Sequence record: ON528734
Length of the DNA: 64,000 nucleotides
Source of the DNA: Shigella phage ESh24
Direction: 5' to 3' (one strand)
Shown here: one piece after another, positions 42,147-45,264 of the stretch
How the letters are laid out: every line of letters begins with the position of its first letter
How positions within the stretch are numbered: the stretch's first letter is position 1
Made by a program: the position numbers and the translations under genes
Notes under the pieces: model-generated
The model's input: the letters and a program-made list of their open reading frames with translations, nothing else
Database searches by the model: none
What the model was told of the DNA's origin: nothing

Positions 42147-42389
42147 ATGATTTTTGTATTTGAATTTATGAATGATGAATTCGATTATGCAATTTTTAAC
42201 GCATTGCATAATCCTGATTTAAATGAATTTAATGAAATGTTTTCTGACGCTTTGAGCATGTCAGAAGAATACTGTGGAGAATGTCAACGTGTTTGTGTGA
42301 CAGTTTTTGAAAACAAAGAAAAGACTTACGAAGAATTATTCTTTGATGCTAATAAAGCCACTGAATGGTTTATTGAAAGGGGGTTTTGA
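42147..42389 (+). CDS. hypothetical acidic protein
   Basis: 80-aa ORF. Confidence 0.5.
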   Translation: MIFVFEFMNDEFDYAIFNALHNPDLNEFNEMFSDALSMSEEYCGECQRVCVTVFENKEKTYEELFFDANKATEWFIERGF

Positions 42390-42977
<588 letters not shown>

Positions 42978-42996
42978 AATAACGTGTGGCGGAAAT

Positions 42997-43344
42997 ATGA
43001 ATTTTAATTATTACCCTATTCTATTAGAAAAAGATGATAAGCAGCCAAAGTGGCAGGGTCCTCAGTTTATTAAAGGCGTCTATCAATTAGTAGTTCCTAA
43101 AGACAAGATTTATAGCAGTTGTTTCACTGAATCCGCCTGCAGTATTTTCGGTAATAGTTCTCCGTATTGGAATTTTGACATAAAGCTGGATAGAAATATC
43201 GATATTTGGTTGAAAGCTATGGATATTGGTAATATCACGTTTGATGAGAATAATTATCATATTATTGGTCGCTTTTCCAAACGCGGTAAAGAATTGTATT
43301 TCACACCTGAAATTGAAAGAAAATTTGATGCTAAACCGTATTGA
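42997..43344 (+). CDS. hypothetical protein inserted between frd and td
   Basis: 115-aa ORF; in T4 frd and td overlap (recalled), so this ORF occupies an extra slot. Confidence 0.5.
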   Translation: MNFNYYPILLEKDDKQPKWQGPQFIKGVYQLVVPKDKIYSSCFTESACSIFGNSSPYWNFDIKLDRNIDIWLKAMDIGNITFDENNYHIIGRFSKRGKELYFTPEIERKFDAKPY

Positions 43345-43387
43345 TTATTTAGCTTCATAAAATGTATTATAATATATAAGGTACTAA

Positions 43388-43936
43388 ATGAAACAATACC
43401 AAGATTTAATTAAAGACATTTTTGAAAATGGCTATGAAACCGATGACCGAACAGGCACAGGAACAATTGCTTTGTTTGGTACTAAATTACGCTGGGATTT
43501 AACTAAAGGTTTTCCTGCAGTAACAACTAAGAAGCTCGCTTGGAACGCATGTATTGCTGAGCTTCTATGGTTTATTTCCGGTTCTACCAATGTTAATGAT
43601 TTACGTCTTCGTACTCATGGTAGTCTTATTCAAGGTAAAACTATCTGGGATGACAATTATGAAAACCAAGCTAAAGACCTAGGATATCATAGTGGTGAAC
43701 TTGGTCCAATTTATGGAAAACAGTGGCGTGATTTCGGTGGTGTGGATCAATTAGTTGAAACTATTGATCGTATTAAAAAATTACCAACTGATCGACGTCA
43801 AATCGTTTCAGCATGGAATCCAGCTGAAATCAATCAAATGGCATTACCGCCCTGTCATATGTTCTATCAGTTTAATGTGCGTAATGGCTATTTAGATTTG
43901 CAGTGGTATCAACGATCAGTAGATGTTTTCTTGGGT
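43388..43936 (+). CDS. td: thymidylate synthase, exon 1
   Basis: TS N-terminal domain; exon ends ...TTGGGT before intron TAATTGAGGCCTGAGTATAAGG. Confidence 0.9.
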
Positions 43937-44952
43937 TAATTGAGGCCTGAGTATAAGGTGACTTATACTTGTAATCTATCTAAACGGGGAACCTCTCTAG
44001 TAGACAATCCCGTGCTAAATTGTAGGACTGCCCTTTAATAAATACTTCTATATTTAAAGAGGTATTTATGAAAAGCGGAATTTATCAGATTAAAAATACT
44101 TTAAACAATAAAGTATATGTAGGAAGTGCTAAAGATTTTAAAAAGAGATGGAAGAGGCATTTTAAAGATTTAGAAAAAGGATGCCATTCTTCTATAAAAC
44201 TTCAGAGGTCTTTTAACAAACACGGTAATGTGTTTGAATGTTCTATTTTGGAAGAAATTCCATATGAGAAAGATTTGATTATTGAACGAGAAAATTTTTG
44301 GATTAAAGAGCTTAATTCTAAAATTAATGGATACAATATTGCTGATGCAACGTTTGGTGATACATGTTCTACACATCCATTAAAAGAAGAAATTATTAAG
44401 AAACGTTCTGAAACTGTTAAAGCTAAGATGCTTAAACTTGGACCTGATGGTCGGAAAGCTCTTTACAGTAAACCCGGAAGTAAAAACGGGCGTTGGAATC
44501 CAGAAACCCATAAGTTTTGTAAGTGCGGTGTTCGCATACAAACTTCTGCTTATACTTGTAGTAAATGCAGAAATCGTTCAGGTGAAAATAATTCATTCTT
44601 TAATCATAAGCATTCAGACATAACTAAATCTAAAATATCAGAAAAGATGAAAGGTAAAAAGCCTAGTAATATTAAAAAGATTTCATGTGATGGGGTTATT
44701 TTTGATTGTGCAGCAGATGCAGCTAGACATTTTAAAATTTCGTCTGGATTAGTTACTTATCGTGTAAAATCTGATAAATGGAATTGGTTCTACATAAATG
44801 CCTAACGACTATCCCTTTGGGGAGTAGGGTCAAGTGACTCGAAACGATAGACAACTTGCTTTAACAAGTTGGAGATATAGTCTGATCTGCATGGTGACAT
44901 GTAGCTGGATATAATTCCGGGGTAAGATTAACGACCTTATCTGAACATAATG
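43937..44952 (+). mobile_element. td group I intron (1016 nt) carrying I-TevI
   Basis: 5' intron sequence matches the T4 td intron as recalled; 1016-nt length equals T4 td intron; exon 2 resumes in frame. Confidence 0.9.
44068..44805 (+). CDS. I-TevI: GIY-YIG homing endonuclease I-TevI
   Basis: 245 aa; GIYQIKNTLNNKVYVGS GIY-YIG motif, Zn finger, C-terminal DNA-binding domain. Confidence 0.9.
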   Translation: MKSGIYQIKNTLNNKVYVGSAKDFKKRWKRHFKDLEKGCHSSIKLQRSFNKHGNVFECSILEEIPYEKDLIIERENFWIKELNSKINGYNIADATFGDTCSTHPLKEEIIKKRSETVKAKMLKLGPDGRKALYSKPGSKNGRWNPETHKFCKCGVRIQTSAYTCSKCRNRSGENNSFFNHKHSDITKSKISEKMKGKKPSNIKKISCDGVIFDCAADAARHFKISSGLVTYRVKSDKWNWFYINA

Positions 44953-45264
44953 CTACCATTTAATATTGCATCATATGCTGCGTTAGTTCATATTGTAGCT
45001 AAGATGTGTAATCTTATTCCTGGAGATTTGATATTTTCTGGCGGTAATACTCATATCTATATGAATCATGTGGAACAATGTAAAGAAATTTTACGTCGTG
45101 AACCTATGGATTTATGCGAATTGCAATTAAAATTTCCAGATGAATTTGATGAATGGGACACAGAATCGCAGGTATTTTGGTTGAGTCAATTCGCAAAGCC
45201 GCATAATTTTGTTCTTAACAACTATGAATCACACCCTTCTATTAAAGGAAAGATGGCGGTGTAA
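44953..45264 (+). CDS. td: thymidylate synthase, exon 2
   Basis: continues [15 protein letters not shown]...; joined product 286 aa. Confidence 0.9.

Follow-up and report, generated by a model that had tools for sequence, protein, structure and literature searches.

In phage T4, the gene encoding dihydrofolate reductase (frd) runs directly into the gene encoding thymidylate synthase (td). The T4 genome (NC_000866) places frd at 145109-145690 and the start of td at 145112, with a 4-nt ATGA overlap and no td.1 gene in between, so that the overlap stated in the original prediction is correct. The middle promoter Ptd of T4 has its mapped start site at 145142 (PMC2988021 Table 1), i.e., inside the 3′ end of frd and 30 nt upstream of td. 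T4 middle promoters carry a MotA box, for which the consensus is (a/t)(a/t)(a/t)TGCTTtA, at 12 ± 1 bp from a sigma70 -10 element that has to be excellent (PMC2988021). The described T-even systems with which the locus studied here can be compared are the free-standing seg and mob homing endonuclease genes and the PeSL promoter-stem-loop cassettes (PMC2839356, PMC4122927). In reviews of T4, frd and td appear solely as metabolic genes.

We analyzed a stretch of 64,000 nucleotides from Shigella phage ESh24 (ON528734), which we refer to in full as the window. This is a T4-like (Tequatrovirus) segment in which a 115-aa ORF, td.1, lies between frd and td, and the features of the locus are as follows.

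42393..42977, + strand: frd (dihydrofolate reductase), 194 aa, from the ORF list; stop codon TGA at 42975-42977
42910..42944, + strand: Ptd homolog in the 3′ end of frd, by identity to the T4 sequence around 145142
42971..42979, + strand: left copy of the 9-bp direct repeat TAAATGAAA, from the alignment of T4 with the window
42978..42996, + strand: frd-td.1 spacer of 19 nt, AATAACGTGTGGCGGAAAT, from the alignment
42997..43344, + strand: td.1, 115 aa, ATG start, PHROG 1928, from the ORF list, tblastn, dN/dS and the structure model
43345..43387, + strand: td.1-td spacer of 43 nt, from the alignment, promoter scan and pattern search
43385..43393, + strand: right copy of the 9-bp direct repeat TAAATGAAA, from the alignment of T4 with the window
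43388..43939, + strand: td exon 1 (thymidylate synthase), from the ORF list; start codon at 43388-43390
44068-44805: I-TevI, in the td group I intron
44950-45264: td exon 2

The gene order in the window is 32, frd.3, frd.2, two 80-aa ORFs, frd, td.1 and td exon 1, followed by the intron with I-TevI, td exon 2, nrdA.2, nrdA.1 and nrdA, and we found no paralog of td.1 elsewhere in the 64 kb. The Frd protein of the window shares 86% aa identity with T4 Frd and 97-98% with the allele present in F2, FL33 and L011 (one of the loci that we collected), and td exon 1 shares 91-99% aa identity with its relatives. The left copy of TAAATGAAA spans the frd stop codon, where it forms a mini-frame of two codons (ATG AAA TAA), and the right copy spans the start codon of td; a weak Shine-Dalgarno-like GGCGG is present in the spacer at 42978-42996. 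The 80-aa ORF directly upstream of frd (42147-42389, + strand) also has no counterpart in T4, where tblastn found no match at this locus; T2 (KMC23_gp176), KarlGJung, F2 and FL33 carry it as well, and other relatives contain a different small ORF at this place.

Our searches demonstrated that the 115-aa ORF is td.1, which is a genuine protein-coding gene found in the Tevenvirinae and is already annotated as a widespread hypothetical protein in hundreds of genomes, and that its presence here is ordinary and not new. The protein matches the PHROG 1928 profile with E=8.2e-36 (residues 4-111 against positions 2-125 of 126), and this profile is also matched by all 67 of the 67 td.1 relatives that we collected. 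In the T2H record (AY262132.2) the gene product is named “hypothetical protein Td.1” (ABI48932.1), and the RB14 and RB51 records carry the same gene as RB32ORF229c. A tblastn search with td.1 identified 559 phage records, 362 of them at ≥90% identity and 197 at <60%, with the former being Tequatrovirus and Mosigvirus records that include T2, T6, RB3, RB14, RB27 and RB51. The coordinates given in the original prediction are all correct, and it was right that a real ORF is present at 42997-43344, as the PHROG 1928 match, the 559 records and the dN/dS values described below all show, but its view of the ORF as extra to the frd-td junction is overturned by synteny comparison, which finds the same ORF at the same position in most relatives (~360 Tequatrovirus and Mosigvirus records, and other genera in addition). 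Our literature search with td.1, RB32ORF229c and phrog_1928 found no text on the gene; td.1 has never been studied, since the model phage T4 does not contain it.

Homologs with 30-45% identity to td.1 occupy the same slot between frd and td in at least six other Tevenvirinae genera, with slot orthologs present in Kanagawa-, Mosuguk-, Jiaoda-, Moon- and Gelderlandvirus-type phages and in Erwinia phage FBB1. Detailed examination of four of these loci (Kanagawavirus IME523, Mosugukvirus PM2, Jiaodavirus JD18 and Moonvirus Merlin) located the homolog between frd and td in 4 of 4, and usually overlapping its neighbours. The divergence of td.1 across genera (30-45% identity) runs parallel to that of frd (40-48%). 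The frd-td.1-td layout was also found in T2, SF, F2 and two metagenomic loci (L031 and L032). In one streamlined T4-like locus from metagenomic data, the order is 59-32-DHFR-X-TS-nrdA-nrdB, where X overlaps both neighbours and no other small ORFs are present, and a second metagenomic locus shows the order DHFR-X. Thus placed, td.1 is usually translationally coupled with its frd and td neighbours, and it is the commonest occupant of the slot and most likely the ancestral one. A tandem paralog of td.1, placed between td.1 and td, was observed in IME523, PM2 and Merlin, and not in JD18; these paralogs (L002:2817-3173, L003:2808-3152 and L005:2787-3131) show 22-27% identity, share the same GRFxKRG motif and contain an insert of ~20 residues.

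An exhaustive profile search returned 48 clusters (at 50% identity), all of ~100-150 aa, and both profile and structural searches confined the family to phages. One candidate member, the 2903-aa repeat protein P0028, proved spurious, matching through its own repeats only. All structural matches in BFVD are uncharacterised proteins, and those that are named belong to T4-like phages. The td.1 of the window has no Pfam or NCBIfam domain even at E<=10, a sequence search of the PDB was empty, and profile searches of Pfam, NCBIfam and the PDB with the td.1 family gave no matches.

In Tequatrovirus, the slot between frd and td occurs in three states. In the first, the slot is empty and the two genes overlap at ATGA, as seen in T4 isolates, T4T, RB55, RB59, vB_EcoM_112, HY03 and G28, the only phages with a T4-type junction among the records listed; this state accounts for a few percent of records, as obtained by subtraction (514 records less ~362 and ~135) and from a spread listing. 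In the second, td.1 is present together with its spacers (~360 records). In the third, an unrelated 68-aa ORF that overlaps both neighbours takes the place of td.1 (~135 Tequatrovirus records). An example of this ORF (MSNKLKVKDVPNAMALFICRQMHQGPMTPKQYLKG...) is found at L026:1648-1854 in Yersinia phage fPS-65, and 40-44%-identical homologs are present in unrelated phages of the Phapecoctavirus type, e.g., phAPEC8. Whether td.1 is present does not depend on the td intron: T4 contains the intron and no td.1, SF contains td.1 and no intron, and the window, unlike T2, which has td.1 and no intron, contains both. Thus, of the suggestion that the junction is a mobile-element hot spot next to the intron-containing td, the polymorphism of the slot holds, and the tie to the intron does not. 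In vB_EcoM-G28, one of the phages with an empty junction, the intron ORF is annotated as a 168-nt I-TevI-like remnant (L027:2327-2494), i.e., a degenerate homing endonuclease gene.

Removal of 414 bp from the window, consisting of one copy of TAAATGAAA and the intervening DNA, gives the T4 junction base for base. We favour the reading that td.1 is ancestral and was lost in T4, where a precise 414-bp deletion between the two copies of TAAATGAAA would have emptied the slot and created the famous frd/td overlap, making the empty T4-type junction a rare and derived state. The 9-bp direct repeats fit insertion with target duplication equally well, so the repeats alone cannot separate deletion from insertion, and ancestry followed by loss is favoured by three comparisons: the cross-genus synteny, the coupled form in SF and the intermediate form in F2. 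In SF, a Mosigvirus, the ATG of td.1 overlaps the TGA of frd, the 19-nt spacer is absent, and just 15 nt precede td. In F2, the left spacer is the only one present. The F2 frd gene (L024:1894-2511) also shows a 2-nt insertion in the A-run before ATGA (TATATAAATGA to TATAAAAATGA) that removes the TGA stop and adds 11 codons, which run into the start of td.1.

Comparison of eight td.1 alleles gave pairwise dN/dS values of 0.02-0.07, with dS up to 0.9, demonstrating that the gene is under strong purifying selection. Residue 14 (codon 43036-43038) is the sole variable residue among the Tequatrovirus alleles examined (D/E/T/A), and aspartate occurs there only in the td.1 of the window, in contrast to A, T or E in database records; there is no 100% database match, and 211 records share the highest tblastn identity, 99.1%. 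We also compared window positions 42393-43341 with loci L006-L011 and L022-L025. Two frd alleles are present among relatives, with ~86% and 97-98% aa identity to that of the window, and nearly all Tequatrovirus loci have a td.1 with 98-99% identity whatever the frd allele (92% in F2). Between Mosigvirus SF and the window, identity is 58% for frd, 93% for td.1 and 95% for td exon 1. This split of frd into two alleles next to a uniform td.1 suggests mosaicism, with a recombination boundary between frd and td.1.

We next consider how td.1 may be transcribed. The T4 Ptd sequence, aaaTGGTTgA-N12-TAAAAT-N6-A, is identical to positions 42910-42944 of the window, where the MotA box aaaTGGTTgA lies at 42910-42919 and is followed by a 12-nt spacer and the -10 element TAAAAT at 42932-42937. 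The predicted +1 is A42944, 53 nt before the ATG of td.1. With its identity to a mapped T4 promoter and its correct box to -10 spacing, this region has the properties of a MotA-dependent middle promoter, and 15 Tequatrovirus loci, among which all three junction types are represented, retain the motif with 0-1 substitution. By homology, and given its location 53 nt upstream, the Ptd homolog appears to be the promoter best placed to serve td.1. We propose that td.1 would be co-transcribed with frd from upstream early promoters and, in addition, transcribed from the MotA-dependent Ptd homolog with a predicted start at 42944. In contrast to T4, where Ptd reads directly into td because the 414 bp are missing, the Ptd homolog of the window would reach td.1 first, and the T4 promoter named Ptd probably served td.1 originally.

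The spacer downstream of td.1 contains a promoter-like block that has to be weighed separately. TGTATTATAAT is present at 43363-43373, with TATAAT at 43368-43373, and the spacer further contains tttAGCTTcA at 43348-43357, TAATAT at 43370-43375 and a td Shine-Dalgarno sequence, AAGGT, at 43378-43382. A block of ~30 nt (~43349-43378) is found in all examined td.1-bearing Tequatrovirus loci except F2 and is absent from Mosigvirus SF, and 9 loci with td.1 and its spacers show no change in it or a change of 1 nt; the spacer of the window is 2 nt (TT) shorter after TATAAT than in the other loci. If this block (43348-43375) were a functional internal promoter, either a MotA middle promoter or a weak sigma70 promoter, td and its intron would be transcribed independently of frd and td.1. 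The perfect TATAAT, the near-invariance of the block in 9 loci together with its absence from SF and F2, and the annotation of a promoter here by one depositor (phage Lutter; a computational annotation) all argue for this. The MotA-like box tttAGCTTcA matches 8 of 10 consensus positions, but it is 10 bp from the perfect TATAAT, against the consensus distance of 12 ± 1, and at 12 nt the -10 element is just TAATAT (which matches TATAAT at 4 of 6 positions) or TAATTT, whereas middle promoters need an excellent -10, so that the block falls short of the MotA-dependent promoter consensus. As a sigma70 promoter, it reads TTGATT-18-TATTAT with 9 of 12 positions matched and no GTTTAC-type T4 early -35, and such consensus matches occur near chance frequency in the AT-rich DNA of the window; across 5 kb, our promoter scan counted 31 promoter-like sites, compared with 22.8 ± 4.3 in shuffles. 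Moreover, transcription would be predicted to start ~8-13 nt before the td ATG, trimming or removing the Shine-Dalgarno sequence, and since the whole region is 99% conserved, conservation of the block is not diagnostic of a promoter. We therefore regard an internal promoter at this place as somewhat doubtful.

The -10-like element that the original prediction noted before td is thus present, in a conserved spacer, but its hexamers do not exceed chance and its fit to the consensus is partial; the proposal that it is the ORF's own promoter fails, since the element lies downstream of the ORF and the Ptd homolog in the 3′ end of frd is better placed. Certainly, td obtains a Shine-Dalgarno sequence of its own (AAGGT) from the td.1-td spacer; providing this ribosome-binding site would be the main role of the spacer, which may or may not act as an additional weak internal promoter. 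Folding of the RNA of both spacers gave no significant structure (z -1.7 and -0.3). An imperfect inverted repeat, GTATTGATTATTTAG / CTAAATGAAACAATAC (window 43338-43352 with 43384-43399), could form a stem between the region of the td.1 stop and the start codon of td, leaving TATAAT in the loop, at a non-significant -9.5 kcal/mol (z=-1.7); this arrangement recalls the hairpin and internal promoter of I-TevI. A further candidate element, with a perfect match to the MotA-box pattern (TGCTTTA-N12-TATAGT), is located at 44857-44881 (+ strand), downstream of the I-TevI ORF and within the td intron.

An AlphaFold2 model of Td.1, based on the 67-sequence alignment, reached a pLDDT of 90.8 and a pTM of 0.84. 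This confident model predicts a small beta-barrel with an OB-like topology, in the order beta1 (6-12), beta2 (27-34), short strands (38-64), a helix (68-76) and a beta4-beta5 hairpin (86-104). The model has no significant relative among solved structures; its element order is that of the OB fold, and the nearest known domains for comparison are OB-fold nucleic-acid-binding domains, e.g., HIN, Teb1/RPA-like, S1 and the RecO N-terminal domain. Residues W19, G91, K95 and G97 are invariant in the family, G27, Y29, F93 and F102 are near-invariant, and R92 is found in most members; the window protein contains all the conserved residues of the core motif GRFxKxG as well as W19, G27, Y29 and F102. In OB folds, the L12 loop, strand beta2 and the beta4-beta5 hairpin form the usual ligand-binding face, and these are the elements of the model that are predicted to contain W19, Y29, F93, K95, G97 and R92. 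Td.1 is ~13 kDa, and the family is mildly basic (median pI 8.6). The position of conserved aromatic and basic residues on the usual OB binding face favours a binding role, and we tentatively propose, with low confidence, that Td.1 binds nucleic acid or a protein partner as a non-catalytic subunit alongside the phage DHFR/TS nucleotide-precursor machinery.

Taken as a whole, the explanation that we prefer, covering the identity and ancestry of td.1, its deletion in T4, its transcription and a function as a binding protein, has in our estimate a probability of about 0.65. Against it stand the distant family member P0031, for which DHFR is not adjacent on its contig, the absence of td.1 from T4 and its replacement by an unrelated ORF in many phages, which speak against a tight requirement for DHFR/TS function, and the consideration that conserved synteny in a stable operon is, alone, no proof of a functional link.

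The main rival view of function is that td.1 is an accessory gene for host interaction or anti-defence that lies in this operon merely for early or middle expression and has no role in nucleotide metabolism. T4 does without td.1, from which we infer that the gene is dispensable under laboratory conditions, and RB55, RB59, HY03 and G28 also do not contain it; furthermore, the slot is exchangeable, with the 68-aa ORF present in ~135 records and having homologs in Phapecoctavirus-type phages, and Td.1 is a small protein of a phage-only family, with no known domain and with position 14 as its one site of variation among the Tequatrovirus alleles examined. Counter-defence genes are, however, usually patchier and faster-evolving, whereas td.1 is under very strong purifying selection, with 99% aa identity where frd differs by 14%, and has syntenic orthologs in many genera that diverge as frd does. 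We consider an accessory role of this kind unlikely.

Within the preferred reading, a more specific version is that Td.1 is a hitherto unrecognised non-catalytic partner of DHFR-TS, built on a beta-barrel that has no close solved relative, and serves, e.g., as a scaffold for the dNTP-synthesis complex or as its tether to nucleic acid or gp32. We hold this version to be distinctly improbable. If it were true, co-function would be the reason that td.1 has been kept between frd and td throughout Straboviridae, and T4 would be an atypical model for the pathway.

The least probable reading, which we rate as very unlikely, is that td.1 and its spacers form a recent mobile cassette, homing-endonuclease-like or promoter-bearing, in a T4-like overlapping frd/td junction. 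Several features recall such an element, i.e., 414 bp bounded by 9-bp direct repeats, a left repeat that keeps the first two codons of td (ATG AAA) and then a stop, spacers and Shine-Dalgarno sequences of its own that are not seen in other genera, and 99% aa identity of td.1 across divergent frd alleles, but this reading appears largely refuted by the cross-genus synteny of orthologs in the same slot of at least six other genera. In addition, the two spacers would have arisen separately, as the coupled form of SF and the left-spacer-only form of F2 indicate, the presence of td.1 does not follow the td intron, 0 of 67 members contain a nuclease motif or a Pfam match, and the 115-aa protein is modelled as a beta-barrel. 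Records of the BASEL collection label the gene “putative homing endonuclease”, a label that we reject since td.1 shows no nuclease feature: neither a GIY-YIG nor an HNH domain is present, as the original prediction had stated, there is no Pfam or NCBIfam match at E<=10, and the 67 relatives gave no consistent nuclease-domain match. The sporadic distribution expected of a homing endonuclease gene was also not found, with orthologs sharing the slot across genera and diverging in parallel to frd. A PeSL cassette was likewise rejected, since no terminator-like stem-loop was found near 42978-42996 or 43345-43387.

These findings correct the perspective on a textbook arrangement, in that the frd/td overlap of T4 would be a derived deletion state shared by a few percent of sequenced relatives, with T4 the unusual member at this junction and most relatives carrying td.1. 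The residual interest lies in a highly constrained small protein, wedged between DHFR and TS in many phage genera, that has a confident model and no significant solved relative.

Among the known systems, the closest to the window are T2H, RB14 and RB51, where td.1 encodes a 99% identical protein at the same position and is followed by a downstream spacer of 43-45 nt. T4 is like the window in its flanks, which are identical and include the complete Ptd and TAAATGAAA, and differs in being without the 414 bp of td.1 and spacers. With seg and mob genes and PeSL cassettes, td.1 shares a variable intergenic slot among close relatives, short flanking repeats and a promoter-like element after the gene; unlike these, it contains no GIY-YIG or HNH motif and no stem-loop terminator, and in place of their sporadic distribution it shows deep synteny across genera.
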